This document shows, one piece after another, positions 16,869-54,010 of a stretch of DNA of 64,000 nucleotides. The DNA comes from an uncultured delta proteobacterium (lineage in GTDB: Bacteria; Desulfobacterota; Binatia; UBA9968), in NCBI GenBank assembly GCA_963771465.1, contig CAVYTU010000017.1:768001-832000 (forward strand), given 5' to 3'. The position numbers were made by a program, and so were the translations under genes. The notes under the pieces were generated by a model. It made no database searches. It saw only the letters and a program-made list of their open reading frames with translations, and was not told the DNA's origin. Numbering within the stretch: the stretch's first letter is position 1; the number at the start of each line of letters is the position of its first letter.

Positions 16869-19277
16869 TCAGGAAAACGGACGCGCCGCGAGTCTTTCAC
16901 CGGGAGAAAAACCATGCGGAGCTTCGGGCTCGAGAGCAAGCCTTAAGGCCTCGTCCGCGGTTTTCAAAAACTCGAAGCGAATGCCCTCGCGGCCGGCGGG
17001 GGGAATCTCATCTAAATCTCTGCGGTTCATCTCAGGCAGCAAGACACAGGAAATCCCGGCCCTTTTTGCTGCCAGCATTTTTTCTTTAATCCCGCCTACC
17101 GGTAGCACCAAACCACGCAAGCTAATCTCGCCGGTCATGGCGATGTCTTTGCTAATGTGCCGTCCGGTTAACAGTGAAACGAGGGCGACGAAGAGCGTGA
17201 TTCCCGCGCTAGGGCCATCCTTTGGAATAGCGCCCGCGGGTATATGAATATGCAAGTCACTCTTTTTGAAGATCTCGGGATCAATGCCCAAGGTTTCCGC
17301 GCGCGATTTGACCAGGCTCAATGCTGCCTGGGCGCTTTCTTTCATGACTTCGCCCAACTGGCCGGTGAGAATTAACTTGCCGTCTCCCGCCATCTTGGTT
17401 GCTTCGACAAACAAGATATCTCCGCCAAACGGCGTCCAGGCCAAGCCCGTAGCTACGCCGGGTAAGCTGGTGCGCAGCGCGATCTCGTTGAAGAATCTCT
17501 TCGGGCCCAGGTAGCCATGGAGAGATTCTTGATCGATGGTGATGGTATCTTCATGACCATCCGCGACCCGCGTCGCTACGCTACGGCAGATAGCTCCCAG
17601 CTGACGCTCGAGTTGGCGCACGCCGGCTTCGCGCGTGTAGGAACGAATAACTTCCCGGATGGCATCATCGGTGAAATTAATCTGCTCCGCTTTGAGACCA
17701 TTCTCGGAGATTTGCCGAGGCACGAGGTAACCCTTGGCGATGACCAGTTTGTCCTCTTCGGTGTAGCCCGGCAATTCCAAAATTTCCATGCGGTCGCGTA
17801 GCGGGCCCGGCACCGTGTCGAGCACGTTCGCCGTCGCGATGAACAATACCTGAGATAGATCGAAGGGCACCGCAAGATAATGGTCTTGAAAGGTTGAATT
17901 CTGCGAAGGATCGAGGACCTCCAGCAACGCAGCGGAAGGGTCGCCATGAAAACTCGCGCTGAGTTTGTCGATCTCATCGAGCATGAAGACGGGATTTCGA
18001 CTGCCGGCCTTTTTAATCCCTTGAATAATATTTCCCGGCAGCGCGCCGATGTAGGTGCGCCGATGGCCGCGAATATCCGCTTCGTCATGGACGCCGCCGA
18101 GACTTTGGCGCACGAACTTACGATTCATCGCCCGAGCGATACTTTGTCCCAGGGAGGTCTTACCGACGCCCGGAGGGCCGACTAGACACAGGATAGGACT
18201 TTTCCCTTCCGGCATGAGCTTACGAACGGCGAGGAATTCGATGATACGCTTCTTCACTTTGTCGAGGCCGTAATGATCGGCGTCGAGAATCTCGCGGGCT
18301 TTTGGCAAGTCAATCTCTTCCTTGGTGACAATGCTCCAAGGCAGATCTACCAACCAATCGAAGTAGGTTCTCAACAACGAGTGTTCTGGCGACATCTCAG
18401 GAATTCGCTCCAGCCGCGCCAGCTCTTTGAGCGCTTCCGCCTCGACTTCGGGCGGCATCTTTGCGTCGTAGAGTTTTTGTCTAAGCTCTTCGACTGCAAC
18501 GCCTTTGCCGTCTTCTTCGCCCAGTTCTTTTTGAATTGCCTTCAATTGCTCGCGCAGGAAATATTGGCGCTGGGACTTATCCATGGATTCCTTGGTTTCC
18601 GCGCCAATTTTCTTGCTCAATTCCAGCAATTCGATCTGCCGCGCCAATTTTTCCGAAACTCTTTGGGCGCGCTTCTCGGGGTCAAGGATCGCCAGAACCT
18701 CTTGTTTCTCGGCGGTCGGCAGATCCAAGGTCGAAGCGATCATATCGATTACGGACAAAGGATCTTCAATCCGTTCGATCATCGCTCTCAGATCGTTCAT
18801 CGGATCAGGGAATAATGACAATGCCCGGGCGGCTTCCTGTCGCAGGTGTAGGATTCTCGCCTCGAACTCTTTTGTCTGCGGAACCAGTTCCTCCACCATG
18901 GTGACCCGCGCGATGAGGACGGGATCGGTCTCAATAAATTCGCGGATTTCAAAGCGGCGGCGGCCTTGAACGATGACCTGACGCCGACCGTCCGGTAGGG
19001 TAAACATTCGCAGCACGTCGGCGGCCGTACCGATATCGTAGAGGTCCTTGGGCTGCGGCGCGTCGGTATTTGGATCGCGTTGAACGACGAATCCGATCGG
19101 CACTTGTTGGCGCACCGCTTCTTCGACTGCGAGCAGCCGCGCCGGACGGCCGACCATCAATGGCATAATCATGGACGGATAGAGGACCCGGTTGCGCATT
19201 GGGATGATGATCAATGCGTCCGCGGGAATATTTAGGCGCGGCTTGGTTTTAGGGGTTTCCGTTGCTTCAGCGTTCAT
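16869..19277 (-). CDS. lon: ATP-dependent Lon protease
   Basis: LON_substr N-domain, GPPGVGKTS, DEIDK, PKDGPSAG catalytic Ser, GGIKEK. Confidence 0.97.
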   Translation of the reverse strand: MNAEATETPKTKPRLNIPADALIIIPMRNRVLYPSMIMPLMVGRPARLLAVEEAVRQQVPIGFVVQRDPNTDAPQPKDLYDIGTAADVLRMFTLPDGRRQVIVQGRRRFEIREFIETDPVLIARVTMVEELVPQTKEFEARILHLRQEAARALSLFPDPMNDLRAMIERIEDPLSVIDMIASTLDLPTAEKQEVLAILDPEKRAQRVSEKLARQIELLELSKKIGAETKESMDKSQRQYFLREQLKAIQKELGEEDGKGVAVEELRQKLYDAKMPPEVEAEALKELARLERIPEMSPEHSLLRTYFDWLVDLPWSIVTKEEIDLPKAREILDADHYGLDKVKKRIIEFLAVRKLMPEGKSPILCLVGPPGVGKTSLGQSIARAMNRKFVRQSLGGVHDEADIRGHRRTYIGALPGNIIQGIKKAGSRNPVFMLDEIDKLSASFHGDPSAALLEVLDPSQNSTFQDHYLAVPFDLSQVLFIATANVLDTVPGPLRDRMEILELPGYTEEDKLVIAKGYLVPRQISENGLKAEQINFTDDAIREVIRSYTREAGVRQLERQLGAICRSVATRVADGHEDTITIDQESLHGYLGPKRFFNEIALRTSLPGVATGLAWTPFGGDILFVEATKMAGDGKLILTGQLGEVMKESAQAALSLVKSRAETLGIDPEIFKKSDLHIHIPAGAIPKDGPSAGITLFVALVSLLTGRHISKDIAMTGEISLRGLVLPVGGIKEKMLAAKRAGISCVLLPEMNRRDLDEIPPAGREGIRFEFLKTADEALRLALEPEAPHGFSPGERLAARPFS

Positions 19278-19705
19278 GCATTTTTCCTTAGCTCGATGAT
19301 GAGGAGCCCATCCTTGAAGGATATCTCTGCTAGCAATAACGGTTTCTCGTTGCCGACCAGCCTGACGCGCCGCTCAAAGCGGCCAAGCGGAACTTCCCAT
19401 AGCTTTAGCTCCCCATCGTGGCAGCAATTTGGCAGCGGCCGGTCGCCGGCGATGACCAAGTCGTGTCCCTCAAGCCGTACCTCGACCCGTTCAACTGCAA
19501 CGCCAGCGAGGGCAGACATCACCCACACGCTTTCGTCGGTCTCGACTACGTTAACGGGAGGCTCCCATCTTGGCGTTCTGCCAGGCTGTGCACGATAACG
19601 CGCATTGGCGGCGACTTGGAGAAAATTTCTCCGGATCCGCTCTGCCTGCTGGAGCAGATCGTTCGCTCGCTGCCACATGATAAAATCCCAATCGTGCCCT
19701 GCCAT
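19274..19705 (-). CDS. Hsp20/alpha-crystallin family protein
   Basis: WEPPVNVVET, GRFERRVRL, FKDGLLIIEL; overlaps lon start (ATGA). Confidence 0.88.
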   Translation of the reverse strand: MAGHDWDFIMWQRANDLLQQAERIRRNFLQVAANARYRAQPGRTPRWEPPVNVVETDESVWVMSALAGVAVERVEVRLEGHDLVIAGDRPLPNCCHDGELKLWEVPLGRFERRVRLVGNEKPLLLAEISFKDGLLIIELRKNA

Positions 19706-21448: not shown

Positions 21449-21598
21449 ATGAGCCTGCTGTTGTTGATCGTATTAGTTCTGTTGCTGGTCGGCGGTTTGC
21501 CCAACTGGGGTTATCATAAGTATGGCTTTGCGCCCTCCGGTTTCGCCGGAACGGTGCTGCTCGTCGTGGTCATTTTGCTTTTGACCGGCCGGCTTTAA
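21449..21598 (+). CDS. DUF3309-family small membrane protein, copy A
   Basis: MSLLLLIVLVLLLVGGLPNWGYHKYGFAPSGFAGTVLLVVVILLLTGRL*; below the ORF-track cut-off. Confidence 0.85.
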   Translation: MSLLLLIVLVLLLVGGLPNWGYHKYGFAPSGFAGTVLLVVVILLLTGRL

Positions 21599-21706
21599 AG
21601 AGACCGCAGAGAATTTAAGGCACAGGGTTTCATTCCGGAGGTTACTAGAAATTCTTCGAGTAAGCCTGACTCGACCCTGCTAATCAGTACAACCGAGGAG
21701 GCTGCG

Positions 21707-21935
21707 ATGAAAAAATTAATGTTAGTGTTAGTGCTGTTGATCGGCGTCAGTCAAAGCGGCTGTGCATTCTTGGGCGGCGCGGCGGTAGGCAGCCTTGGGC
21801 ACTGGCGCGGGTTACGAAATCAATGCTAATAGCCAGATGGGCAAGTTGGAAAATGATTACAAAGCCGAGAGAATCTCTCGAAGTGAATACCTAGCTCGTA
21901 AATCGCAGATCGAAAAAGGCTCGATCATCTATTAG
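21707..21935 (+). CDS. Small glycine-rich lipoprotein, copy A (extra G near 21797)
   Basis: MKKLMLVLVLLIGVSQSGC lipobox; one base longer than copies at 31681 and 39321. Confidence 0.75.
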
Positions 21936-22120
21936 GAAACATCATTATTCTGTTCGATCGTATCGCTTCGGATTTAGTCCTAGACCCAAGACTCAATAGA
22001 CTCCCGAAGCGGATGGTTCAAAGAGCAAATAGGCGAATCGTCGCAGCACGGGAAGTTGAACGCTCGCGCTGCGACGATCTTGCGAGGTAGCCAAGGATCA
22101 GCTTAGAAAGGGATAGTATT

Positions 22121-22609
22121 ATGGCCTTTAGCAACGCCTGGTCGAACTGGTGGCGCGGTGTTCTCGGGCCTTCTCCTGATACAAATCAAAAGGTGATTGA
22201 GATCTTGTGCCAGCGGTACGTCGATGAGATGCAGCGAATCGAACGGTTTAAGCAGTATGCGGAGAAGATGCACTACCCGCAGTATCGCGACAAACTCCTG
22301 CGCATGGTGACGGAAAAAAGTCACCATGCCGAGCGGATTGGCGAGCGCATAGTCGCCGTCGGAGGTCTGATGCCGGACGTGGTCGACCAGCGCTCGACCG
22401 CACAAAACAGTTGGCGCTCTTTGTCGATGGCTCTCGACGAGGAGAGTCGCTCGGCCGACCGTCTGGAAGAGCAACTCCGGAGCATTCAATCCGAGCACGC
22501 CGACATCGCCCAATTCCTGCAACAGATTTCTCAAGAGCAAGAGAATCACCGTGTGGTAATCCGCGATATGATGATGCGCAGCGATCCGTTTGCGCTCTCG
22601 CTCGCTTAG
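22121..22609 (+). CDS. Ferritin-like domain protein
   Basis: Four-helix pattern EKSHHAERIGERIVAVGG and EQENH. Confidence 0.7.
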   Translation: MAFSNAWSNWWRGVLGPSPDTNQKVIEILCQRYVDEMQRIERFKQYAEKMHYPQYRDKLLRMVTEKSHHAERIGERIVAVGGLMPDVVDQRSTAQNSWRSLSMALDEESRSADRLEEQLRSIQSEHADIAQFLQQISQEQENHRVVIRDMMMRSDPFALSLA

Positions 22610-22878: not shown

Positions 22879-23073
22879 ATGCTTGCAACCATTTTGATCG
22901 TCGTCATGATTTTGTTGCAGACAGGTGCGCTGTCACTGACTTTCATGATCGATCGACGATTTATTACCGCGGCGGTGAGGTCGAAACGTAAATCGGCTCA
23001 CTCAACAATACATAACCGGGAGCGGCCCAAAAGGCGCCGGTCTCGGAAACAGGGAGGTGCTTTATGCCTTTAG
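22879..23073 (+). CDS. Small membrane ORF, possibly a decayed DUF3309 paralog
   Basis: MLATILIVVMILLQTGAL resembles DUF3309 N-termini; first ORF after P2. Confidence 0.35.
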   Translation: MLATILIVVMILLQTGALSLTFMIDRRFITAAVRSKRKSAHSTIHNRERPKRRRSRKQGGALCL

Positions 23074-23282
23074 TTCAACTCGTAGTCGTCCTGATCGTGG
23101 TTGGTGTTCTGCTCGGCCTGGTCAATCGCTACATACCGATGGCAGGATCGATCAAATCGATTCTCAATGGCGTTGTCGTCATCGGCGTAGTGCTGTGGCT
23201 GTTGAATGTTTTCGGGCTCATTAACTCGATCTCGGCGATCCGTGTGGGGAAGTTGTCTTGGCTCGGCGCCATCGGCGCATAG
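23064..23282 (+). CDS. Thivi_2564-family small membrane protein
   Basis: MPLVQLVVVLIVVGVLLGLVNRYIPMAGSIKSILNGVVVIGVVLWLLNVFG; RBS GGAGGT. Confidence 0.8.
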   Translation: MPLVQLVVVLIVVGVLLGLVNRYIPMAGSIKSILNGVVVIGVVLWLLNVFGLINSISAIRVGKLSWLGAIGA

Positions 23283-23359
23283 TTGTGGCGAAGAGGACTC
23301 CCGAAGTTTCCAACCAGCCTGTAGTGTAACCGATAATCAGTGATCATGGAGTACCGTCT

Positions 23360-25930
23360 ATGTTGTATTGGTCACTGTTTTTTCTTTGTGTTACTCTAGC
23401 CGCGGGGCTACTAGGAATTGCTTTCACTGCGGCGCACGCGCGAAAAACTTTGCCGGCGCTCTATCCACACATTCGCTGGAACTGGGCGACTACTATTCCA
23501 ACTGGGTTCAGACGTTTGCGCGCGAGAGCACTGGCGGTGGCTCGCTTCACCAAACGACATTGGTGGCGAGGCATCCTTAATCTGGTAATTTGCACAACGC
23601 CGATAATAGCCGCTGTCGTGTCAATCGGAATTTATCGCGTCTATTTTGACCGCAAAGATTTGCCTGACATAGAAGCTTTCGTCCGCTTTGAATTTCCTAC
23701 CATCGGCACCGTCTACGATGCCAACGGCCAGCCGCTCATTGAACTGGCAAAAGAGTACCGCAAGATCACCCAGTATGAGGACATTCCGGCGATTGTTCGT
23801 GATGCCATCATCGCGACCGAAGACAAACACTTCTTCTCCCATAGCGGCGTTGATTATTCGGCATTTCCTCGCGTGCTGGGCAAAGTCAGGATTCGGGTTC
23901 TGGCGGCAGGGCTCACAGGTTTCGGCGGGCAAGACGAAGTTGAGAGCCCGGCGCTTCTGCCGCAAGGTGGATCGACGATCACTCAACAGCTCGTGCGCGG
24001 TCATTTTCTCAAAAACCTGACGGCGAATGAAAACAGCCACCAGCTCCAGCATGCCGGAATCGTACCGGGCGCGCTGTCTGCCGTGGTCGGCGGCCGGACC
24101 GTCAACATGCTGGTTCGCAAGCTGGAGGAGATGCGCCTCTCGTTGTGGCTCGAAAAAGCGATGGAGAATCGTTTCGGCTCGAAACGCAAGGCTAAGGAAG
24201 AGATTCTCGCCCGCTATGCCAGTTTCATTTACATGGGAAACAGCCAGTACGGGTTTGCCACCGCAGCGGAATATTATTTTGGCCGGCCGCTCGCCACTTT
24301 CACCGCCGATGACGCCGACAAGGCAGCGCTCCTCGCCGGCATCGCCAAGTCGCCGCGTTACTACGCTCCCACTGCGAAGGACAGCTCAAGGGTGTTGCGC
24401 CGCAGGAACCAAACCTTGGCGCTCATGGCAGGGAACGGTTTTATTTCTCGGGACACAAGGAGTGCAGCCGAACAGCGCCCAATTCAGGTGATCGCGCAGC
24501 GCAAAAGCAAGATGCTTGGGGCGCCCGCGGTCATGGATAATGTCCTTCAGGAACTCAAGCGCCGCGGCGACCTCGGCGTTGAGGATATTCTGCAAGGGCG
24601 TATCCAGGTTTACTCGACGGTGGATGTTCGCATGCAGCAACTGGCCAACCAGGCCCTGGAGCGCGGCCTCGAGCTCTACGAGCGGCGACACCCGAGTGCC
24701 AAAGGGATAGTCCAAGGTTCTGTGGTCGTGTTGAGGAACCGCGATGCGAGCATTCTCGCCGAGACGGGCGGCCGTCAGTTCTACAAGAACCGCTCCGCCG
24801 CATACAGCGACTTTAACCGCGTCACCAACTCCCTGCGGCAACCTGGATCAACGATGAAACCCATGGTTTATCTCGCTGCTTTTCGACAGGGAGGCTTTAA
24901 TCTTGAGACCGTGGTTCCCGACGAACCGATCGGTGTGCCGGACGGCGAGAAGCAGAATACGAAATGGATCTCGAACTACGATAAAACATTCAGAGGCATG
25001 ATTCCGCTCCGCGAGGCGCTCGCAGAATCCAGAAACGCCGTGGCGATTTGGCTCACGGGGGAGATCGGCATTGGCAGTGTTCTGGGCACGTCACGGAGTC
25101 TCGGGGTCAAGACGCGATTGCAGCCCTATGCGACGACGGGGTTGGGCGCGTCCGAAGTAAATTTGCTGGAGCTCGCCAATGCGTACCGCGCCATGGCATC
25201 GGGGATCTTCGCCGAGCCGTATGTGATCCGAAAAATCGTCCGCGATTCAGGCGAAGTGATGACCGAAAACGCAATGGAGCAGTCTGCGGTCAATATCAAC
25301 GACTCCGCGCTCGCGCTGATTCAGGAAGGCTTGCGCGGTGTGGTGCGTATGCCCAGCGGCACGGCCCATACGCTTAACTCTAACGTTTTCCCAATCGCGG
25401 TCATGGGCAAGACCGGGACGACAAACGAGTTCAGAGATGCGCTCTTTGTCGGCTCGACTTACGGCGCCGACGGCATCACCATCGCCGTCCGTGTCGGCTT
25501 CGACGATAACCGTTCGCTCGGAGCCAATGAAACCGGCGGTCGGCTGGCGTTGCCGGTTTTCAAAGAACTCATGCTCAACGTGTACCGCGAAAAGTTGGTC
25601 GGCGCCGCGCCCAAGTTTCCGCCGCAGATGGAGCAGAATATTAGCGATTATTTGGCGGGCGGCACCGTCGCAACGGGAGAGCCGTTAATCGAATTTAACC
25701 CTGTCAAATTTGCCAGTGCCCCTTTCGGTGCGTTTGACGGATCGCGGCGAAGCGTCTCAAGGACAGCCGTAGAAATATTTCAATCAAAATGTCTAAAATT
25801 GGACTGCGATCTATGTCAATTTGATCGACAATTCAAAAGTCTTCAAAAACTTATGGAAACTTTGAATAGACGGGATATCCTCCAGGAAGTTTCTAACCGA
25901 ATGCGGGTATTCCGGGTGGTATGTGGTTGA
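23360..25930 (+). CDS. Class A penicillin-binding protein (transglycosylase + transpeptidase) with DUF1328-like N-terminus
   Basis: EDKHFFSHSGVD, GGSTITQQL, RKLEE, QPGSTMKP (SxxK), SRN (SxN), GKTGT. Confidence 0.9.
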   Translation: MLYWSLFFLCVTLAAGLLGIAFTAAHARKTLPALYPHIRWNWATTIPTGFRRLRARALAVARFTKRHWWRGILNLVICTTPIIAAVVSIGIYRVYFDRKDLPDIEAFVRFEFPTIGTVYDANGQPLIELAKEYRKITQYEDIPAIVRDAIIATEDKHFFSHSGVDYSAFPRVLGKVRIRVLAAGLTGFGGQDEVESPALLPQGGSTITQQLVRGHFLKNLTANENSHQLQHAGIVPGALSAVVGGRTVNMLVRKLEEMRLSLWLEKAMENRFGSKRKAKEEILARYASFIYMGNSQYGFATAAEYYFGRPLATFTADDADKAALLAGIAKSPRYYAPTAKDSSRVLRRRNQTLALMAGNGFISRDTRSAAEQRPIQVIAQRKSKMLGAPAVMDNVLQELKRRGDLGVEDILQGRIQVYSTVDVRMQQLANQALERGLELYERRHPSAKGIVQGSVVVLRNRDASILAETGGRQFYKNRSAAYSDFNRVTNSLRQPGSTMKPMVYLAAFRQGGFNLETVVPDEPIGVPDGEKQNTKWISNYDKTFRGMIPLREALAESRNAVAIWLTGEIGIGSVLGTSRSLGVKTRLQPYATTGLGASEVNLLELANAYRAMASGIFAEPYVIRKIVRDSGEVMTENAMEQSAVNINDSALALIQEGLRGVVRMPSGTAHTLNSNVFPIAVMGKTGTTNEFRDALFVGSTYGADGITIAVRVGFDDNRSLGANETGGRLALPVFKELMLNVYREKLVGAAPKFPPQMEQNISDYLAGGTVATGEPLIEFNPVKFASAPFGAFDGSRRSVSRTAVEIFQSKCLKLDCDLCQFDRQFKSLQKLMETLNRRDILQEVSNRMRVFRVVCG

Positions 25931-26321
25931 ACCGTGTAGGTTAAGTACTGAAAACTTCCTCCTCTTTAATCCTAAGGAGAAAAAGATGGGGGAGATTTCG
26001 ATCCCCGATGAGTGGCTCGACGACCCGCACCAACGGAGCACCATCGGTGAATCGCTTGCGACGACGATCGAAAATTGCAAGGACGCTATTCCTAAGCGCG
26101 TCTAAGTTCTTCCCTTCATCCCGCCCTTGAGCTGTTCCGCGGCGGCGCGGCCGAGAACACGGCCTTAGATCGCCGCGGTTGGTTTGTCTTTCTCTCTCCC
26201 TTAGCCTCGCAATAGTTCTTTCGCGACCGTCCGGTATTGGACAGCATTCGATCCTGGTTACGTGCATGATGTGCGTCGAATAGCGCTTATCCAAAAAGCG
26301 CCATTTCAAAAGGAGTCTCAG

Positions 26322-42937: not shown

Positions 42938-42938
42938 G

Positions 42939-44721: not shown

Positions 44722-45353
44722 TGACTGGGGTGACGAGAAGGATTCTAGCAATCGTCGCGGTGTGGGTTTGGTTTGGCGGTTGTGCCACCTTCGCCCCGCG
44801 AGCCGATCCGTCAAGTTTCTATGTCCTTGACGCTCTACCCGAGGCAGACTTGCTGGTAGAGATTAGCACAGCCGGCGTCAATGCCAATTTTACCGTAGGC
44901 CTTGGCACCATTGAATTACCCGGTTACCTCGACCGCCAACAGATCGTCACCCGCACTTCCAACAATCGATTGAGCTATTCCGAGAACGACCGTTGGGCCA
45001 CGCCGTTAGCCGAAAACTTCAGTCGCGTTTTGGGGCAAAATATTTCGCATCTTCTTAAACCCGCGCAAATGATCCAGTTCCCCGGGCAAAGTACCGACGT
45101 ACCGGATTACCAGGTGAAAATAGAGGTGATCCAATTCGAGGCCAACAGCGATCAGCAGGTTTGGCTGATCGCGCGCTGGAGCGTGATCGACAGAAGCAAA
45201 AAAATTCTGGTCCACCAAAGATCGCAACTGAATCGGCGCGCCGGATCGTCAGCCACCGAAGATTTCGTGAAAGGGTTGAGTGCGACACTCGGGGATCTGA
45301 GCCGTGAAATCGTAAAAACTTTACTGTCTTTGGAGAAGCAGGATAAAACGTAG
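44721..45353 (+). CDS. PqiC-like ABC auxiliary lipoprotein
   Basis: FGGC lipobox; LPGYLDRQQIVTR...DRWATPL. Confidence 0.85.
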   Translation: MTGVTRRILAIVAVWVWFGGCATFAPRADPSSFYVLDALPEADLLVEISTAGVNANFTVGLGTIELPGYLDRQQIVTRTSNNRLSYSENDRWATPLAENFSRVLGQNISHLLKPAQMIQFPGQSTDVPDYQVKIEVIQFEANSDQQVWLIARWSVIDRSKKILVHQRSQLNRRAGSSATEDFVKGLSATLGDLSREIVKTLLSLEKQDKT

Positions 45354-45513
45354 ATCCCCACCCGTTCTCTTCGGAAGTCTACGGTTGCGTATAGCGCACT
45401 TTTTTTCTCGACTTGTCTCGTATTGAACAGCAAAGTTTAGCGAGCCTTTATACGCTCATGGTCGGGAAAAATCGGAACGATTCAGTATAAGTAATAATCA
45501 AGGAGAAATCGCC

Positions 45514-45687
45514 ATGTCATTTGGAATCTATCTCGTCGGATACATCATACTGATCGCTGGGCTGGCGATCGGAGCCAATCTACTCAACGTGCCGATGCAG
45601 TGGATCGGCGTGGCCATTCTCTGTATGGTCGGCATAGCAATCGTCCATGGCGTGACGGCGACCCGACAAAAGGATCCTCAGTCGTAG
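45514..45687 (+). CDS. 57-aa two-TM small membrane protein
   Basis: RBS AAGGAG; MSFGIYLVGYIILIAGLAIGANLLNVPMQWIGVAILCMVGIAIVHGVTATRQKDPQS*. Confidence 0.75.
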   Translation: MSFGIYLVGYIILIAGLAIGANLLNVPMQWIGVAILCMVGIAIVHGVTATRQKDPQS

Positions 45688-47609: not shown

Positions 47610-47750
47610 ATGAATTGTCCGCGCTGCGAAAAATACATTGTGCCTGAGTTTTATTGCATAAACTGTGGCTACGTGCCGCCAAGGATGCAGTACCCCGATC
47701 CGAATAATATCGCTGAACTTGAGATCCCAATGAGCCTCAGCGGACGGTAA
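47610..47750 (+). CDS. 46-aa putative zinc-ribbon protein
   Basis: GGAG RBS; MNCPRCEKYIVPEFYCINCGYVPP (CxxC-x9-CxxC). Confidence 0.55.
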   Translation: MNCPRCEKYIVPEFYCINCGYVPPRMQYPDPNNIAELEIPMSLSGR

Positions 47751-47849
47751 GACATCAAGCTAAGCCTCTCACCTGCGCTTTCTCTGATTAATGTTACGGG
47801 CGTCTGGCTCAAGGTAAATCCGATCAGGCGAAAGAAAGGAGAAACTAAC

Positions 47850-47924
47850 ATGAACAGTATTGTCTATATAGTTGGTCTTGTTGTCGTAGTGCTTTTCGTT
47901 GCCGGCTTTCTTGGACTGAGGTAG
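47850..47924 (+). CDS. 24-aa single-TM membrane peptide, copy B
   Basis: RBS AAAGGAG; MNSIVYIVGLVVVVLFVAGFLGLR*. Confidence 0.8.
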   Translation: MNSIVYIVGLVVVVLFVAGFLGLR

Positions 47925-48081
47925 CCCCGGGGCCTCGCGAATCACGCGGAACTTCACCGATAGTTTTATTTACACCTTTCTAATACTGGACCGCGAGTGG
48001 AAAAACCGCCAGCTAGCACGGAGCTGGAACGGGATTTCATTTTGGCGGATCTACAAAGCGCAGTCGAGGAGGACTACGGTC

Positions 48082-48561
48082 ATGACGATTTCCACAAATG
48101 AAGACGTGATTGCCGGAGACGACCTTACCGTTCATGGAAAAAAGCAGCTTCATACCGACGACATCGCCGGCACGGCGAAGCCGGCTCCCGAAAAATTCAT
48201 CGAGGCGAAACGTAGCGATGGTAACGTTAACACTAAAGTAGATCTCGAACCGCTTTTCGCTGACGGTGTCGACCGGGATTTTCGCAATCGATGGCGCGAT
48301 ATTCAGTCGGGTTTCGTTGACGAGCCGCGCGCGGCCGTAGAGCAGGCCGATCAACTGGTGGCGCAGTTAATGCAGAGATTGGCGCAAAGCTTTTCGGAGC
48401 AGAGAAGCAACCTGGAAAAACAGTGGGAAGCGGCCGAGAAAGTTTCCACTGAAGAGCTGCGGGTAGGGTTCACTCGATATCGCTCTTTTTTTGAACGTCT
48501 CCTTTCTATCAACGGGGCTGACGGGGCAACCACGGCAATTCCTCGCGCGTCAACAGCATAA
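48082..48561 (+). CDS. Conserved hypothetical helical protein
   Basis: RWRDIQSGFVDEPRAAVEQADQLV...STEELRVGFTRYRSFFERLL. Confidence 0.75.
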   Translation: MTISTNEDVIAGDDLTVHGKKQLHTDDIAGTAKPAPEKFIEAKRSDGNVNTKVDLEPLFADGVDRDFRNRWRDIQSGFVDEPRAAVEQADQLVAQLMQRLAQSFSEQRSNLEKQWEAAEKVSTEELRVGFTRYRSFFERLLSINGADGATTAIPRASTA

Positions 48562-48785
48562 CTTTAAAATCCAATGCAACGCCGGCGCGATGCCACTGGT
48601 CGCGACGCCTCTGCACGGAAGGAAAGGCCGCTTAATAAATGTTTTAAGGACCGTTCACTATTGGACAGCAGTGTCTGCCGAATCGGCGTATCTCATCGAA
48701 CAACTGGTGCGCCTAGGGCAGGGACAAATTCGCATGAGTTTGTTTCGAGGATTAACGAGCTATCAGATTCGATACGGAGGTACAG

Positions 48786-49376
48786 ATGGAAACGTTAGAT
48801 ACCCAAACATGGATTATACTTGCTGCGGTTGTAGTCCTTGCATTGGTTGCCCTTGGGGCGTGGATTTTCTACCAAAAAAATCAATCCCACAAGCTCCAAG
48901 ATCGATTCGGGCCGGAGTATGGCCGAACCGTGAATGAATTGGGCAGTCGAACCAAAGCAGAGTCGGAACTTAAGGCGCGCGAAAAGCGCGTCGAGCGGCT
49001 CGAAATCATTGCGCTCGCGCCATCGGAAGCCGCCAGATTCACCGAGGCCTGGCAAGCATTACAGGGCCGATTCGTCGACAACCCCAAGGGAGTGGTTGTC
49101 CAAGCCGAACAGCTGGTTCGTGAGCTGATGGAAAAGCGCGGTTACCCCATGGGTGATTTTGAGCGCCGTGCGGGCGATATTTCGGTCGACCATCCCGACG
49201 TTGTGGCCAATTACCGATTGGCGCAGGCCATCGCTGTGCGCGATCGTCAGGGCACGGCGGACACCGAGGAGCTGCGCAAAGCGGTCGTGCATTACCGTGC
49301 GCTCTTCGATGAGCTGCTCGAGGTGAGGGCGGCGAAGCAAGAAATTATCGTCGAGAAACGCGTTGCGGCGCGCTGA
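48786..49376 (+). CDS. Membrane-anchored conserved hypothetical protein homologous to 48082..48561
   Basis: N-terminal TM, RFGPEY, WQALQGRFVDNP...DTEELRKAVVHYRALFDELL. Confidence 0.8.
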   Translation: METLDTQTWIILAAVVVLALVALGAWIFYQKNQSHKLQDRFGPEYGRTVNELGSRTKAESELKAREKRVERLEIIALAPSEAARFTEAWQALQGRFVDNPKGVVVQAEQLVRELMEKRGYPMGDFERRAGDISVDHPDVVANYRLAQAIAVRDRQGTADTEELRKAVVHYRALFDELLEVRAAKQEIIVEKRVAAR

Positions 49377-49403
49377 AAAAAGCAGCCTGGTTAGGAGAAT
49401 CCC

Positions 49404-49619
49404 ATGGAACGAACGTACAAGAAAATTGAAATCGTCGGCATGTCTGAGACCAGCTTCGGCGAGGCCACTCAAAACGCTGTGGCGAAGGCCTGTCAGTCGC
49501 TACGCCACGTCGACTGGTTCGAAGTGACCGAAATGCGCGGGCTGGTTGAGAAAGACAAAGTCAAAGAATTCCAGGTCACCGTGAAGATCGGGTTTCGCCT
49601 GGAAGACCAGCCGGCATGA
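49404..49619 (+). CDS. Dodecin (flavin-binding)
   Basis: TYKKIEIVGMS...SLRHVDWFEV...FQVTVKIGFRL. Confidence 0.93.
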   Translation: MERTYKKIEIVGMSETSFGEATQNAVAKACQSLRHVDWFEVTEMRGLVEKDKVKEFQVTVKIGFRLEDQPA

Positions 49620-49835: not shown

Positions 49836-50723
49836 ATGAAAAGATTACGATCAGTTCTATCGCCGATGATTACGGCAGCGGGTATTGTCGCGCTGTCGGG
49901 TGTCGGCTTGGCTCAAACACCGAGTGATTCCCACCGTGCTGCGGCTGCCAGGGCGCATGAAATTATGTCCAGCGCGCCTTGCCCGCTACCCAGGGTCACC
50001 AAGGATAAAATAACCGAGGACCAAGCGCGGGATTTGGCCCAAGGTTTTGCGGACAAAAACATGACCGGCTTTAAAGTAGTGCGGCCGTCGGTTACGGCGG
50101 CGGCTACAACACGATGTGCTACCAGACAGTCAGCGGCGCTCCCGCACGGCCTCTGGTGTTATACTCGGTTGAGTATTCCATCGATCTAAAAAACCCAGCC
50201 GGTGAAACGCGCAATCTCTGCGTCGATCAGTACGGCACGACAAGCGAGTATTGCAGCGATTTCGGCTTCGCCGGAGCAAACGGCCCAGCTGGCCCCATGG
50301 GCCCAGCCGGCCCGATGGGTGCGCAAGGTCCAGCCGGACCAGCGGGCACGCAGACGGCGGCGGTAAAGAACTGGTCTTCGTTCAGGGATTTCCTGTTCGA
50401 TTTCGATAAGTCGGCGATTCGCTCTAACGAGACGAGCCATGTAACTGACATCGCGGCGCTACCTAAAGCAGAATCCGAGCGCCCGGGTGGGCATCGACGG
50501 CCACACCGATCCGCGCGGAACAGACGCTTACAATCAAGGCCTGAGTGAGCGTCGCGTCAACAACATTAGTGATGCGCTCGTTGCCGCTGGAGTGACGAAT
50601 GCTAGGATCCTTACCGGCGCTTTCGGTGAGTCGCGGCCCAAATGCAATGAATCCACTGAGCCTTGCTGGCAGCGCGACCGCCGCGTCGAGGTGCTGATCG
50701 GCACCGACACAGCGAGCAGATAA
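49836..50723 (+). CDS. Exported protein: Cys-containing N-domain + collagen-like linker + OmpA C-terminal domain (frameshifts near 50088 and 50459)
   Basis: Three ORFs join; GPAGPMGPAGPMGAQGPAGPAG; FDFDKS, GHTD, YNQGLSERR, RRVE. Confidence 0.8.
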
Positions 50724-50778: not shown

Positions 50779-50818
50779 ACAACGACCCCTGGGACCAACC
50801 GGCCCCGGGGGTCGTTGT
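50779..50818 (+). terminator. Stem-loop between OmpA gene and kinase gene
   Basis: ACAACGACCCC...GGGGTCGTTGT 11-bp inverted repeat, no U-tract. Confidence 0.45.
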
Positions 50819-50840
50819 GCGTCAGCTGCAAATCGTGCCT

Positions 50841-52586
50841 ATGATACTTGCATCCATGAAAAGAGTTTTCCTGCCACGCCACTTCCTTGCGTCTGGTTTG
50901 CTACTTCTCATCTTAGCGTCTCTCTATGTTCTCTTCGAAGCCCAGAGGCTCCAGCAAGACCTCTTGCGCCAGACTGAGGACAAGGGGACGGCATTGGCGA
51001 AGGCCATGGAGACCAGTGTTAAAAACGCTATTGTCGGCAACGCTCTATTGGAGGATTTGATCCGGCAGCGTTTGGTGGATAATGCCCAGCTGATCGATCA
51101 ACTGCTGCTCTCTCGTCATGTCGATCAGGCGATGCTTAACGAGATCAGTGCGATGAACCGCCTGCAAAAAATCGATCTTCTCGATGAGCAGGGCCGGCCC
51201 TGGAAACTCGCCGTACTGCCAACAGTGATAGCCCAGAAAAAAGCCCGAGAAGAAACTATTCAGCCGCAGCGCCCGACGATAAGCTACGCGTGGGGAAAGC
51301 GCTGGCGGTTGCCCACGGAAAAAGCCGACGACAAGACCAGCGAACCGCCGCCCCTCATCAAGGGTAAAGAATTCTGGAAAGGCAGTGCCTTCGGCGTCGC
51401 CGTGGGCGCGCGTAGTTTTCCGGGCATGATCGCGATCCACGCCAACGCCGACTATATTTTCAACTTCGAGAAAGCGATCGGAGTGCAAAGTCAGATCGAG
51501 GATCTCGGCCGCCAATCGGACAGTGAGTTTGTGTCTTTTCTCGATAGCGACCTTAACGTCGTAGCGCATACCGACCCGCGTCGTATCGGACAGCAGGAAA
51601 AAGAGCCGCTGGTTTTGAAAGCCAAAGTCGACCGTCAGCTTTTCACTCAGATCATCGACAGCGGCGGGGGTAAACGGTATCTTGAAGTGGTTAAGCCGGT
51701 GGCGCTCGACGAAGCCAATCTGGGATTCCTTAAGATAGGGTTGTCGCTCGGATCGATGGAAGTCGCCTGGCGCAACAGCCTGCGTGCCGTCGTTATTTTG
51801 GGAATCGCTATTTTAGCCGCGGGCATTCTGGGAATGGCGGCGATTTTCCATAACCAGCACTCGCATCTGCAAGAGGTCAAAGCCCTGGAGGCTGAAGTGT
51901 TACACAGAGAGCGTCTGTCAGCGCTCGGAAACCTGGCGGCGACCGTCGCCCATGAGGTGCGCAATCCGCTCAATGCTATTTCAATGGGACTGCAGCGTCT
52001 CAAGATGGAGTTTCAGCCCGCTGAGGATCGCGATCAATACTCTCACCTAACCGAGTTGTTGCTCGGGGAAGCGCGCCGCATCAACTCCATCGTCGAGCAA
52101 TTCCTTTCGCTGGCGCGTCCCATCGAGATCAAAGCCGAAGCGTTGCCGCTGCAAGAAATCCTAAAAGAGCTAGCCGCGTTACAAGAGAGCCACGCTAAAC
52201 AATCGAACGTGCGGATCCAAGTGATCACCGCGCCGAATCTGCCGCCGCTTACGGCCGACCCCAGTCATCTTACCCAAGTCTTGTTGAACCTCATGCTCAA
52301 TGGTTTGCAGGCGATGCCGCACGGCGGAACATTGACACTGGAGGCGAAAACGTCGAACGGCAATTTTCTCATCGCCGTGACTGATACCGGAAGCGGGATC
52401 GACGCGGAAAACCTGCGGCGAATTTTTGAGCCCTACTTCACGACCAAGACCAAGGGCACCGGTCTGGGGCTGGCGATCTCACGCAGGATTATCGAATCTC
52501 ACGGCGGAACGATTACTGTTAGCAGTGAAGTGGGCCAAGGGTCGCGCTTCGAGATTTCCTTGCCGCTCAACGGTGCGGAGGTGTAA
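50841..52586 (+). CDS. Membrane sensor histidine kinase (ZraS/AtoS-like, NtrB-class H-box)
   Basis: Two TMs, ERLSALGNLAATVAHEVRNPL, QVLLNL, FEPYFTTK, GTGLGL. Confidence 0.92.
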   Translation: MILASMKRVFLPRHFLASGLLLLILASLYVLFEAQRLQQDLLRQTEDKGTALAKAMETSVKNAIVGNALLEDLIRQRLVDNAQLIDQLLLSRHVDQAMLNEISAMNRLQKIDLLDEQGRPWKLAVLPTVIAQKKAREETIQPQRPTISYAWGKRWRLPTEKADDKTSEPPPLIKGKEFWKGSAFGVAVGARSFPGMIAIHANADYIFNFEKAIGVQSQIEDLGRQSDSEFVSFLDSDLNVVAHTDPRRIGQQEKEPLVLKAKVDRQLFTQIIDSGGGKRYLEVVKPVALDEANLGFLKIGLSLGSMEVAWRNSLRAVVILGIAILAAGILGMAAIFHNQHSHLQEVKALEAEVLHRERLSALGNLAATVAHEVRNPLNAISMGLQRLKMEFQPAEDRDQYSHLTELLLGEARRINSIVEQFLSLARPIEIKAEALPLQEILKELAALQESHAKQSNVRIQVITAPNLPPLTADPSHLTQVLLNLMLNGLQAMPHGGTLTLEAKTSNGNFLIAVTDTGSGIDAENLRRIFEPYFTTKTKGTGLGLAISRRIIESHGGTITVSSEVGQGSRFEISLPLNGAEV

Positions 52587-54010
52587 ATGCCCAATCGTTT
52601 TCATATTCTGGTAGTCGACGACGAACCGGTGCAGCGCGAGTTGGTTGGCGGCTTTCTCAAGAAACAAGGCTTTGAAGTGATGCTCGCCGATAGCGCTGAG
52701 AGAGCCTTGGAACTGTTTCGTCAGGACGTCTTCGATTTGGTTCTCACCGATCAAAAGATGGCTAACATGTCGGGCCTGGAACTTTTGCAGGCCGTGCACG
52801 CCATCAATCCTGAAACGCCGGTCATTTTGATTACCGCTTTCGGCACTGTCGAAACGGCCGTCGCCGCCCTCAAGCAAGGCGCTCTCGATTACCTGACCAA
52901 GCCGGTGAATTTGGAGGAGCTGCTTTACCGTATTCAACAGGTGAGCGATCACTATCGAATCATCAACGAGAATCGCGAGCTGCGCGAAGTCTTACAGGAA
53001 CGCCATCGCATCGAAGGAATCATCGGCGAGAGCGGGCCAGATGCTGGAAGTCCTTTCCTTGGTGCGCCGCGTGGCTCCGAGTGAAGCGACGGTGTTGATT
53101 CGCGGCGAGAGCGGCACGGGAAAAGAGCTGATTGCCCAAGCGATTCATTTTGCCAGCCCAAGAGCGCGCGGTCCGCTCGTCAAGGTCAACTGCGCGGCGC
53201 TTCCCGAAGCGCTTCTCGAATCGGAATTGTTCGGCCATGAAAAAGGCGCTTTTACCGGCGCGCATCACTTCGCGCCAAGGGCGTTTTGAGTTGGCCAATG
53301 GCGGAACTATATTTCTCGACGAAATCGGCGACCTTCCTTTGCACCTGCAGGCAAAACTCTTGCGCGTGCTGCAGGAGCGGGAATACGAGAAGGTCGGCTC
53401 CAGCCGTTCGGTCAAGGTCAACGTCAGAATTCTGGCTGCCAGCCACAGACCACTCGAGGATCTCATCAAAGCGGGACAGTTGCGGGAGGATCTCTACTAC
53501 CGGCTTAACGTCGTCACGATTCTCATTCCACCGCTGCGTGAGAGACGCTCGGATCTTTCGCTGCTGATCGATCACTTCCTGCGGCGCTTCGCAGCGAAGA
53601 ACGGCAAGACGATCCGCGGTCTAACCCATGAAGCGCGGGATATTCTTTTACGCTACGACTATCCGGGCAACGTGCGGGAGCTGGAAAATCTTATTGAGCG
53701 GGCCGTGGTTCTTACCCGAGACGAAGTCATCGGCAGCGGTGATTTACCTTTGACTGTCCATGACTCCGAGGCAGAGGACGAGCAAGGAACGAACCTAACG
53801 GTTGCGGTGGAAGCGCTGGAGCGCCGTATGATCAGGGACGCTCTGGCCCGATCCGATGGCGTCCAAACCCGCGCCGCGGAACTGCTCGGAATCAGTGAAC
53901 GGGCGCTGCGGTACAAACTAACTAAATACGGTTTTAGGGAGGAAGCTTCAGATCCTGATTCCGATCTTAAAGTTCAATCTCCAGGGGAAGATGCTGAACC
54001 ACACGATTAA
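52587..54010 (+). CDS. Sigma54-dependent NtrC-family response regulator (REC-AAA+-Fis HTH; frameshifts near 53034 and 53263)
   Basis: ILVVDDE receiver, [55 protein letters not shown] across three frames. Confidence 0.93.

Follow-up and report, generated by a model that had tools for sequence, protein, structure and literature searches.

A block of stress-related genes in this uncultured Binatia genome probably forms a self-contained sigma-54 regulon, in which a histidine kinase and its neighboring activator would drive eight promoters and which would descend from a single-operon envelope-stress system. The promoters are all on the forward strand, between 21.4 and 49.8 kb of the window (the whole 64-kb stretch of DNA analysed), and precede about 42 genes in 32.7 kb, the regulator genes included (Table 1). 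The first-pass annotation of this DNA had noticed stress genes wired to sigma-54 and had read them as a different general stress response packaged with its targets; the observation is confirmed here, while the interpretation is partly supported.

Table 1. Promoter modules, operons and neighboring genes, in window positions (UAS, upstream element)
Feature	Position	Strand	Content
Module P1	21276..21403	+	double-dyad UAS 21276-21317; sigma-54 promoter TGGCACATAAGCTGC at 21389-21403
Module P2	22711..22838	+	UAS; promoter TGGCACAGAGCTTGC
Module P3	29432..29560	+	UAS; promoter CGGCACAACAGTTGC
Module P4	30901..31026	+	UAS; promoter TGGCATGGATAGTGC
Module P5	38878..39005	+	UAS; promoter CGGCACGTAAGCTGC
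Module P6	41073..41200	+	UAS with degenerate first half-site; promoter TGGCACAAATAGTGC
Module P7	47184..47309	+	UAS; promoter TGGCACACAACCTGC
Module P8	49666..49791	+	UAS; promoter CGGCATAACAGTTGC; precedes regulator operon
Operon 1	21449..22609	+	DUF3309 21449-21598; 75-aa lipoprotein paralogue 21707-21935, broken by a frame change; ferritin-like protein 22121-22609
Operon 2	22879..28382	+	small membrane protein 22879-23073; Thivi_2564 23064-23282; PBP1A-type transglycosylase/transpeptidase 23360-25930; FecR/DUF6600 protein 26262-28382
Operon 3	29608..30721	+	60-aa membrane protein; CsbD 29961-30185; low-affinity iron permease family 30299-30721
Operon 4 (12 genes)	31073..38745	+	26-aa and 24-aa membrane peptides; 75-aa and 212-aa lipoproteins; BON lipoprotein 32626-32937; YtxH-like 32983-33285; 57-aa and 88-aa membrane proteins; GT4 33956-35176; Fe/Mn SOD 35219-35872; Q/E-rich protein in two frames 36113-37236; cardiolipin synthase-like PLD 37372-38745
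Operon 5	39050..40647	+	DUF3309; 75-aa lipoprotein; 131-aa ORF; Crp/FNR-family regulator 39967-40647
Operon 6	41258..45687	+	glycine-zipper lipoprotein; STAS-MlaE permease; MlaF-type ATPase; MlaD-domain protein 43720-44721; PqiC/ABC_trans_aux lipoprotein; 57-aa membrane protein
Operon 7	47610..49619	+	after the leader: 46-aa Cys-rich protein; 24-aa membrane peptide 47850-47924; 159-aa ORF; 196-aa membrane-anchored protein; dodecin 49404-49619
Operon 8, secreted OmpA-like protein	49836..50723	+	first gene; conserved N-domain, collagen-like Gly-rich linker, OmpA-type peptidoglycan-binding C-domain
Operon 8, sensor histidine kinase	50817..52586	+	two membrane helices flanking a ~285-aa periplasmic domain (Cache-like); HisKA, HATPase_c
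Operon 8, NtrC-family enhancer-binding response regulator	52587..54010	+	REC, AAA+ with GAFTGA, Fis-type HTH (HTH_8)
Hsp20	19274-19810	-	no module
First Crp/FNR	20572-21144		no module
LapA	46611-46961		no module

Promoter modules and their upstream element

In the window, the pattern GG[CT]A[CT]N6TGC has 13 matches on the forward strand and 2 on the reverse strand. The pattern TGGCAYN6TGC has seven matches, all forward, against 1.18 expected, and none of 100 shuffles reaches seven; the stricter textbook sigma-54 consensus at two mismatches is not enriched (24 found, 23.7 expected). Eight of the 13 forward sites, with their GG at 21390, 22825, 29547, 31013, 38992, 41187, 47296 and 49778, share an upstream element, which is missing from the sites at 3627, 13118, 26357, 40908 and 54541. 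This element of 40 nt consists of two tandem 16-bp dyads, TCGAC-N6-GTCGA and, in the second, TCGAC-N6-GaCGA, with centers 21 bp apart, that is, on one face of the helix. At all eight promoters it lies 102-105 nt from the -24 GG, and the TGC of the -12 region is followed by the start codon after 40-57 nt in seven of them, P7 being the exception with a 300-nt leader. The region of P1 (21279-21935) is 84% identical to that of P5.

The element is practically restricted to this block. A 42-nt weight matrix made from the eight elements, applied to both strands of the 6.9-Mb genome, returned nine sites above 40 bits, which are the eight themselves (matching by construction) and an orphan at position 26410 of contig C18; the next best site scored 19.7 bits. 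A looser scan added one module on contig C2, with a disrupted first dyad, in front of an entericidin-family gene.

Predicted target operons

The operons of Table 1 are predicted from strand and gaps alone, and this applies also to the co-transcription of operon 4, whose widest gaps measure 396 and 240 nt. Terminator-like and sigma-70-like sites occur at chance level. Weak ORFs follow operon 2 up to 29038.

Most of the gene identities first proposed hold at curated family cut-offs: both DUF3309 genes (58.4 and 57.1 bits; cut-off 22.3), CsbD (49.1; 40), the ferritin-like protein (27.3; 24.5), Thivi_2564 (66.9; 33), the iron permease (179), BON (60.6) and dodecin (94.2), as well as Fe/Mn SOD, GT4 and the MlaE/ABC/MlaD/ABC_trans_aux set. 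YtxH (24.6 bits, below 37.5) and lmo0937 (16.2, below 30) fall short of theirs, and the gene called GlsB/YeaQ-like has no Pfam or NCBIfam match at E<=0.01. The tiny membrane proteins listed there are borne out, as ORFs of 24-26 aa judged real and conserved in relatives. The list lacked the PBP1A, FecR/DUF6600, cardiolipin synthase-like, Crp/FNR and OmpA-like proteins of the operons. The three genes at the foot of Table 1 lie within 19274..54010 without a module. As for the proposed island of ~35-45 kb, targets and regulator are indeed clustered, and neither mobility genes nor a composition shift mark the block as an island.

Outside the block, DUF3309 genes (that of this genome and 10 orthologues) have no conserved sigma-54 promoter; the copy in this genome has a strict promoter match, and one orthologue has a match at another position.

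The regulator operon and a proposed mechanism

The last operon encodes the putative regulators, and rpoN is present on contig C14. The OmpA-like gene runs through three frames here and is intact, with 296-330 aa, in relatives. The activator gene has two +1 frame changes, near 53034-53040 and 53262, and its orthologue in G018 is intact (473 aa).

In the proposed mechanism, the membrane kinase would sense a periplasmic or envelope condition and phosphorylate the adjacent activator, whose dimers would occupy the two dyads about 103 bp upstream of each -24/-12 promoter. The assembled AAA+ ring would then open the closed complexes of RNA polymerase with sigma-54 at the eight promoters, and about 42 genes for envelope remodeling and stress protection would be switched on. 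The envelope targets would include PBP1A, cardiolipin synthase, the Mla-type lipid transporter, GT4, and the OmpA-like and BON lipoproteins; the protective ones CsbD, DUF3309, the ferritin-like protein, SOD, dodecin and many tiny membrane peptides. A Crp/FNR-type secondary regulator would also be induced. Since the regulator operon would be among the targets of its own circuit, positive feedback is predicted.

Conservation among relatives

A 19-nt core pattern of the element was sought in 24 congeners, 5 genomes of family f2 and 11 of family f3. It was found in 10 congeners, in clusters of up to seven, in three f2 genomes, once each, and in no f3 genome; a reversed-pattern control gave three matches altogether. 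When 34 modules from fetched loci of nine relatives are added to the eight described here, 41 of the 42 keep a spacing of 102-105 nt. Mean pairwise identity in this set is higher in the UAS (0.68) and the promoter (0.65) than in the spacer (0.37) and downstream (0.30). Among the UAS copies of relatives, four have no promoter matching the search pattern.

The modules stand before the same gene families in congeners. In five congeners the first gene behind a module encodes DUF3309, the same count holds for entericidin (PF08085, 29.2 bits) and for the OmpA-like protein, and the Thivi_2564-PBP1A, CsbD, BON-YtxH-GT4-SOD, Mla and dodecin genes also follow modules in relatives. The order of operon 2 behind a module is kept in G015, G018 and G020, the three in which the P7 promoter has the same letters, and operon 6 is kept behind a module in G015 and G020. 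Clusters resembling the whole block, with targets and regulator, occur in congeners. Modules orthologous to P8 precede the kinase operon in G018, G020, G014, G019, G004, G027 and G029, and in four genomes of family f3.

The tie between kinase-activator pair and element, suspected in the first-pass annotation, is reflected in their co-occurrence. With the kinase scored by its sensor half at a minimum of 60% identity, 8 of the 24 congeners have both kinase and element and 13 have neither; two have the element alone (both 88% complete) and one the kinase alone, at a contig end. In a sample of the class (120 genomes plus this one), the dyad-plus-promoter pattern occurs only in the order of families f1, f2 and f3, with no genome of any other family; it was found in seven genomes besides this one, at one site each (control 0), and the f2 site and the four f3 sites adjoin the kinase gene. 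In a sample of the phylum (400 plus this one) it occurs only here and in one genome of the same family. Binatia records with a kinase 51-59% identical carry the same dyads and a strong promoter before the operon, which reads as small protein, HtrA, kinase and activator in L018, and as HtrA, kinase and activator in L022. Both HtrA proteins have two PDZ domains, and the small protein of L018 is periplasmic.

Comparison with known systems

The ZraPSR system of Enterobacteria also combines a membrane kinase and an NtrC-family activator with sigma-54 promoters, autoregulation, a theme of envelope stress and a periplasmic protein as first target. In NCBIfam the kinase, which is ZraS/AtoS-like, scores highest with ZraS (253.5 bits), and ZraR is, with Aquifex NtrC-family proteins, among the closest solved structures of the activator. 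However, the equivalog cut-offs (479 and 760) lie far above the scores obtained, the sensor domain here differs in being Cache-like and larger, the first target has no relationship to ZraP, and eight promoters with about 42 genes contrast with the very small known Zra regulon. In the available text of PMC12314577, ZraS is thought to sense envelope stress.

The promoter layout recalls NtrBC at glnAp2, with tandem same-face dyads some 100-140 bp upstream of a GG-N10-GC promoter and a REC-AAA+-Fis-type HTH activator with GAFTGA, but the half-site is TCGAC instead of TGCAC, the spacing is rigid and the targets have no nitrogen role. With the Cpx and sigma-E responses, where DegP and CpxP are under Cpx control, the system shares the HtrA protease of the L018 and L022 operons and the small periplasmic protein of L018; it differs by relying on NtrC and sigma-54 and not on an OmpR-type or ECF regulator, and an OmpA-like fusion protein takes the place of HtrA in the genus of the window. 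The Psp response is likewise a sigma-54 membrane-stress regulon with small membrane proteins, but PspF, which PspA restrains, has no receiver domain, and the block has no genes for PspA, PspB or PspC.

The targets themselves resemble the regulons of RpoS (Gammaproteobacteria), SigB (Bacillota) and EcfG (Alphaproteobacteria) in CsbD, BON/OsmY-like, ferritin-like, SOD and small membrane proteins, and in the entericidin of relatives. Here, in contrast, an ATP-driven activator at sigma-54 promoters would replace the swapping of a sigma-70-family factor, no module for partner-switching or proteolysis is seen, and the targets cluster beside the regulator.

Alternative readings

With two frame changes each in the activator and the OmpA-like gene, both could be pseudogenes and the eight promoters silent, and the X1 soil contigs favor this reading, as none shows a deletion at 53034 (0 of depth 18.6). 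Contigs from two other soil studies, on the other hand, are one base shorter at both 53034 and 53262 (two contigs of X2, one of X3), and those of X1, X3 and X7 have an additional G behind 50089, in the OmpA-like gene. Split genes are also frequent elsewhere: across the genome they include about 3 of some 25 activator genes and, in the right flank, those for KaiC and a PAS kinase. The first activator shift sits in a G run. Taken together, these observations form the indel-error pattern of an assembly, and the upstream elements and promoters are intact. Because soil contigs lack both extra bases, the activator frameshifts are probably assembly errors. A relic regulon is thus unlikely; were the changes real, the regulon would be silent in this genome. 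It is most improbable that another protein uses the dyads, be it the Crp/FNR paralogues of the block, one encoded behind P5, or one of about 24 other enhancer-binding proteins. The 5-N6-5 geometry would suit Crp-family dimers too, but a sigma-54 promoter requires an AAA+ activator, and proteins of the NtrC family usually bind sites of this kind, with two dyads on the same face near -115. Moreover, the module is followed by kinase and activator in two of the three fetched f2 loci, where tblastn found no Crp/FNR gene, and the dyads precede the kinase operon in the other Binatia records as well.

The physiological role of a kinase-driven sigma-54 regulon can also be read differently. The system could stand in for RpoS, SigB or EcfG as the master switch that responds to starvation, drying, and osmotic and oxidative stress, as first proposed, and the gene content does parallel known general stress regulons: according to the available portions of two studies, EcfG directly targets CsbD and ecnAB in Sphingopyxis (PMC7083833), and in Salmonella the small proteins under sigma-S control include ecnB and the CsbD-like yjbJ (PMC5437024). 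Near-identical DNA occurs in soil and rhizosphere metagenomes. The window has no sigma70-family gene, as the first-pass annotation stated (all 16 genomic Sigma70_r2 matches are elsewhere), and in the genome RpoS (best 294 bits against 378.7) and SigB/F/G (135.6 against 234) stay below their cut-offs and NepR has no match. Nevertheless, the genome has about 11 ECF-size sigma genes and a second RpoD-like sigma factor of 509 aa, which could act as a stationary-phase factor. The circuit has no integrating module and just one membrane sensor, itself with a single periplasmic domain, its ancestral operon is of the HtrA envelope-stress type, and the absence of the block from 13 of the 24 congeners, several of them 97-100% complete, would be odd for a master response. 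We therefore consider a true general stress response doubtful, while the sigma-54 wiring and the clustering stand. Enhancer-binding proteins also serve in Myxococcus development, and a resting-cell programme with cyst- or spore-like envelope thickening would agree with the PBP1A, GT4, cardiolipin synthase, lipid transport and many lipoproteins of the regulon, and with positive feedback and a secondary regulator. Such a programme is very unlikely, given that sporulation or cyst marker genes are absent and that in the accessible text of the Binatota genome paper (PMC8262859) desiccation comes up only where carotenoids are concerned.

Proposed origin of the regulon

The sigma-54 regulon would derive from one operon with a module, a small periplasmic protein, HtrA in some lineages, kinase and activator, a form that is conserved in the order. 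The older single operon with HtrA/DegP in other Binatia records points to an origin in envelope stress and to a single periplasmic input. The regulon would then have grown in one soil genus, in part through segmental duplication, reaching 5-9 modules with a matched promoter in each genome. Considering that sister families have one module directly upstream of the kinase operon and other Binatia have HtrA in it, an older two-component envelope-stress system seems to have gained a large, general-stress-like regulon in one genus of soil bacteria.

Eight Sigma-54 Promoters Sharing One Upstream Element

The hallmark of sigma-54 promoters is a pair of GG and GC dinucleotides placed 10 nt apart (-24/-12), which extends to TGGCAC-N5-TTGC. 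A scan of the window for this textbook consensus with two mismatches is uninformative, since the number of sites found equals the number expected (24 versus 23.7). The stricter TGGCAYN6TGC matches seven times, always on the + strand, against 1.18 expected, and the looser GG[CT]A[CT]N6TGC yields 13 matches on the + strand and two on the - strand. Eight + strand promoters, P1 to P8, all fit YGGCAY-N6-TGC and only loosely the full textbook consensus. They are convincing because the same upstream activator site (UAS), yCGACCnTTTGGTCGAnnnnnTCGACgcTTTcGaCG, stands upstream of each.

The 42 modules of UAS and promoter gathered from this genome and its relatives all fit GG[CT][AC][CT]-N6-[TC]GC, the very pattern by which they were chosen; four additional UAS copies in the relatives have no promoter match. 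In the consensus of these modules, the element consists of two 16-bp dyads, TCGAC-N6-GTCGA followed by TCGAC-N6-GaCGA, whose centers are 21 bp apart, that is, two helical turns. In 41 of the 42 modules, 102-105 nt separate the start of the double dyad from the GG, within the range of about 80-150 bp taken for an upstream activator site. The -24/-12 dinucleotides and the upstream site are accompanied by a single genomic copy of rpoN (Sigma54_DBD, 214 bits, in an open frame of 494 aa). Pairwise identity is 0.68 in the UAS and 0.65 in the promoter, versus 0.37 in the spacer between them. The distance from the -12 TGC to the first start codon is 40-57 nt in seven of the eight promoters, while P7 has a leader of 300 nt. 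This leader was considered as a small RNA and rejected, being variable among the aligned relatives and followed by conserved small ORFs.

A weight matrix built from the eight window sites and run on the whole genome returned 12 sites above 18 bits. Nine of them exceed 40 bits, namely the eight sites themselves (by construction) and one orphan element, and the rest reach at most 19.7. From this near-confinement to the eight window sites it follows that the element is not a dispersed repeat. The orphan (45 bits) has neither a sigma-54 promoter nor a co-directional gene behind it. A looser scan additionally pointed to a gene for an entericidin-family lipoprotein on another contig, where the first dyad of the element is interrupted; this gene stands alone amid sequence with a low coding score, and relatives have the same gene within the cluster. 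Three sigma-54-like sites of the window stand without the shared element and probably belong to other activators. Scans of the window for sigma-70 promoters and for terminators stayed at chance level, and zero Rfam families were matched there.

Coordinates of the features discussed (plain numbers refer to the window, C numbers to contigs of the same genome)
Feature	Position	Strand	Remarks
Sigma-54-like site without shared element	3626-3640		TGGCATGAAATCTGC, 356 nt ahead of the dCache-GAF histidine kinase gene
dCache-GAF histidine kinase gene	3996-7019		
Lon protease and Hsp20 genes	16869-19810	-	directly flank the block
Duplicated segment, one copy	20462-21935		
75-aa lipoprotein gene	21707-21935		split
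Q/E-rich protein gene	36113-37236		split
Duplicated segment, other copy	38881-40647		
Sigma-54-like site without shared element	40907-40921		in the gap after a Crp/FNR gene
P7 leader	47310-47609		GAACTACAATG repeated twice; mostly deleted in the relative G018
OmpA-like gene	49836-50723	+	split
Sensor kinase gene	50817-52586	+	
NtrC-family activator gene	52587-54010	+	split, three frames
Sigma-54-like site without shared element	54540-54554		TGGCATGGTGTTTGC, 70 nt ahead of the single-domain receiver gene
Single-domain receiver gene	54625-54984		
PAS kinase gene	55656-57622		split; right flank
KaiC gene	57734-59196		split; right flank
Entericidin-family lipoprotein gene	C2:7471-7790	-	GGCACAGATAGTGC 59 nt upstream
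Third DUF3309 gene	C13:158690-158941	-	near-consensus TGGCATGGCTGTTGC 102 nt upstream
rpoN (Sigma54_DBD match)	C14:367875-368351		
Second RpoD-like sigma factor gene	C17:914981-915793		
Orphan element	C18:26400-26441		

The Regulator Pair

The activator encoded in operon 8 has the domain set of the NtrC family: a receiver (Response_reg, 111.3), the AAA+ sigma-54 interaction domain (Sigma54_activat, 120 over profile positions 83-167 and 107.6 over positions 5-83 in another frame), and a Fis-type helix-turn-helix (HTH_8, 55.8), all of which lie in one ORF of 473 aa in the relative G018. Its translations contain the Walker A motif GESGTGKE and the GAFTGA loop. The nearest named relatives of the pair are ZraSR and AtoSC, although both proteins remain below the equivalog cut-offs, the kinase with 253.5 versus 479 (ZraS) and 243.2 versus 646 (AtoS), and the activator pieces with 113.1 and 265.5 versus 714 (AtoC) and 107 and 224.8 versus 760 (ZraR). 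The records with full-length relatives of the kinase (51-78% identity) all bear the title 'Candidatus Binatia bacterium' or the older label 'Deltaproteobacteria bacterium'.

The N-domain of the OmpA-like protein has no Pfam match when tested for PepSY. Its residues 56-140 are modelled as one helix and four strands (pLDDT 72-86), and this low-confidence model gives weak structure matches to 4exr (Z 7.0), 5boi (5.9), 7atk (5.9), and 2gu3 (5.7), which we take to be PepSY-type entries. The C-domain beside it has a clear OmpA-like structure match (Z 12).

In the window, the activator is spread over three frames, one each for the receiver, the front half of its AAA+ domain, and the remainder, and the OmpA-like gene is likewise split. 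The frame changes, those of the activator being located with the intact orthologue of G018, were compared with contigs of independent soil metagenomes. One base fewer is present at position 53034 in two contigs of run X2 and one of X3 (none of X1), and at position 53262 again in two contigs of X2 and one of X3, while contigs of X1, X3, and X7 hold an extra G behind position 50089. Split genes also occur elsewhere in the block and in its right flank, and genome-wide about three of about 25 activator genes are split. Quite probably, the frame changes are assembly indels and not signs of decay, with such errors probably arising at roughly one per 5-10 kb.

Cargo of the Eight Operons

Judged by strand and spacing, about 42 genes follow the eight promoters.

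Gene content of the operons headed by P1 to P8
Operon	Genes
1	DUF3309, 75-aa lipoprotein, ferritin-like protein
2	small membrane protein, Thivi_2564, PBP1A, FecR/DUF6600 protein
3	60-aa membrane protein, CsbD, iron-permease-family protein
4	26-aa and 24-aa peptides, two lipoproteins, BON, YtxH-like, two small membrane proteins, GT4, SOD, Q/E-rich protein, cardiolipin-synthase-like PLD
5	DUF3309, second copy of the 75-aa lipoprotein, 131-aa ORF, Crp/FNR regulator
6	glycine-zipper lipoprotein, STAS-MlaE/MlaF/MlaD/PqiC-like transporter
7	46-aa Cys-rich protein, 24-aa peptide, two unknown proteins, dodecin
8	OmpA-like protein, kinase, activator

The families listed in the first-pass annotation were largely recovered (CsbD, two DUF3309, BON, dodecin, SOD, GT4, and Thivi_2564), but YtxH and lmo0937 remain below their cut-offs, and the protein described as GlsB/YeaQ-like has no family match. 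Typical targets of general stress responses, such as CsbD, OsmY/BON, Dps/ferritin-like proteins, SOD or catalase, entericidin, and small hydrophobic proteins, are represented, entericidin behind modules of the relatives. The transporter of operon 6 is of the Mla/Pqi type, with an MlaE permease (225.6), an MlaF ATPase (ABC_tran, 104.9), an MlaD protein (43.0), and a PqiC-like ABC_trans_aux lipoprotein (132.3); neither MlaA nor MlaC was seen in the operon. The PLD protein of operon 4 scores 287.4 with TIGR04265, slightly below the cut-off of 290.

Part of this cargo derives from a segmental duplication with rearrangement. The stretches at P1 and P5, each with its module, DUF3309, and lipoprotein, share 84% identity, and the two Crp/FNR genes share 81%. 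Such a duplication represents one way in which the regulon grew. A third DUF3309 gene lies outside the block behind a near-consensus promoter sequence. A conserved sigma-54 promoter at this gene was rejected, as only one of 10 orthologues has a strict site, and there it is positioned elsewhere.

Distribution of the Element and of the Kinase

A 19-nt core of the element was found in 10 of 24 congeners, where it is clustered (7, 6, 5, 4, 3 copies, and so on), in three of five genomes of the sister family f2, once each, and in none of 11 genomes of the family f3. These counts take in the unpublished genome G005, and the reversed core used as control gave three matches in total. The clusters fetched from nine genomes contain 34 promoter-bearing modules. 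The first gene behind the module in congeners encodes DUF3309 (5 cases), an entericidin-family lipoprotein (PF08085; 5), an OmpA-like protein (5), and, among others, Thivi_2564 or a ferritin-like protein. Later operon members are also kept, including PBP1A, CsbD, BON, YtxH-like, GT4, SOD, Mla, and dodecin. The first-pass note proposed to look for the motif upstream of csbD, DUF3309, and BON homologs in relatives; in congeners, modules stand ahead of operons with these families.

The proposed association between the element and the kinase and activator also holds. The kinase, counted where the sensor half is at least 60% identical, occurs together with the element in eight of the 24 congeners, and neither is present in 13. 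Of the three discordant genomes, two have the element alone (both 88% complete) and one has the kinase alone, at a contig end. A module precedes the kinase/activator operon in this genome and in G018, G020, G014, G019, and G004.

At a wider scale, a dyad-plus-promoter pattern with a variable dyad center was applied to 120 genomes of the class in addition to this one. It is found only in the order of the families f1, f2, and f3, in seven further genomes with one site each; the four sites of f3 and the one of f2 adjoin the kinase gene, and the other families and the control gave zero. Among 400 further genomes of the phylum, one of the same family has the pattern, besides the present genome. In other Binatia records, whose kinase is 51-59% identical, these dyads again stand at the head of the operon, together with a strong promoter of the TGGCAC type. 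The gene order is small protein-HtrA-kinase-activator in the record L018 and HtrA-kinase-activator in L022, with an HtrA that combines Trypsin_2 with two PDZ domains. At 34-39% identity, the small protein that comes first is a homolog of the N-domain found in the OmpA-like protein of the present genus.

Based on this pattern, we infer that the activator encoded in the window would bind the dyads, and the pair is the likely regulator of the modules. The ancestral job of the system would have been an envelope-stress response, later enlarged in this genus.

Genomic Setting: Island and Sigma Factors

The genome (6.9 Mb in 19 contigs; completeness 99.4%, contamination 6.3%), of which the window covers C17:768001-832000, has near-identical DNA in public soil and rhizosphere metagenome runs. 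Together with the records of the kinase relatives, this led us to regard the organism as a soil-dwelling representative of the uncultured class Binatia. The block had been described as an island that packages the regulon with its targets. The cargo does lie beside its regulator, but the traits looked for in a mobile genomic island (an integrase or transposase, a tRNA or repeat border, a shift in composition) were not found: the flanking genes have no such Pfam domains, and the GC content of the block is 0.50-0.57 versus 0.52-0.58 on its left. In G018, the Lon and Hsp20 pair adjoins the opposite end, that of the activator; the right flank is unconserved, and flank searches in congeners revealed no clean insertion site. 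The patchy distribution within the genus is the sole island-like trait.

As initially claimed, no sigma factor of the RpoS, SigB, or EcfG type is encoded in the window, all sigma-70-family genes being located elsewhere. A profile search of the whole genome found RpoD, a second RpoD-like protein, RpoH, FliA, and about 11 genes of ECF size. Nothing in the genome reaches the cut-off for RpoS (best rpoS_proteo 294 versus 378.7) or SigB/F/G (best SigBFG 135.6 versus 234.35), and NepR has zero matches, so that a dedicated alternative stress factor of the RpoS, SigB, or EcfG type was not found in the sigma-70 family of this organism. The second RpoD-like protein (509 aa) scores 416 with the RpoD model, whose cut-off is 555, and 261.5 with the RpoS model, whose cut-off is 378.7; judged from its sequence, it could be a candidate group-2 sigma factor with a role in stationary phase.

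Standing and Meaning of the Regulon

The mechanism is that of an ordinary NtrC-class two-component system at enhancer-dependent promoters. What is unusual is that cargo resembling that of EcfG and RpoS stands under sigma-54 and is packaged beside its regulator. The overlap with the EcfG regulon of Sphingopyxis (PMC7083833) and the sigma-S regulon of Salmonella (PMC5437024) concerns the non-envelope genes of the block. The argument in PMC3162934 that sigma-54 governs the cell exterior agrees with the PBP, lipid, and lipoprotein part of the cargo. The titles and abstract openings retrieved in literature searches mention no sigma-54-driven regulon of CsbD or DUF3309, and those on DUF3309 contain nothing on its regulation; a 2025 cross-phylum survey of sigma-54 regulons (PMC12316311) is without the terms 'CsbD', 'general stress', and 'Binat'.

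Comparative evidence leaves little doubt that the predicted regulon is real. That it serves to protect the cell and its envelope against stress is plausible and somewhat favored; that it would constitute the general stress response of the organism is rather unlikely. Contigs from one RNA-library run extend across parts of 47.1-53.8 kb, and the one spanning P7 covers both UAS and promoter, thus revealing neither start site nor transcription. Also rather unlikely is the broader proposal that Binatia of this soil genus rely for their protection against many stresses on an enhancer-binding protein with sigma-54 and not on a stress sigma factor. In this proposal, dozens of small stress genes would have come under an old two-component system for envelope stress, of the HtrA type, as its dyad-plus-promoter module spread.

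Textbooks present general stress responses as examples of sigma factor swapping. If the proposal is true, this would be an instance of a third, undescribed way in which bacteria build such a response. Cargo of the same kind placed under one two-component system via sigma-54 would work differently from sigma factor swapping. A sigma-54 promoter gives no transcription unless its activator is present, and its opening consumes ATP, so that expression would be near all-or-none. The boundary of the regulon is unusually sharp, with one element that stands at eight window sites and is nearly absent from the rest of the genome. This places about 20 uncharacterized small proteins in a common stress context and, for an uncultured phylum, supplies a set of genes that can be tested directly. 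Across the order, the comparison traces growth from one operon to up to nine promoter-bearing modules in a genus, a clear example of how a regulatory network grows.
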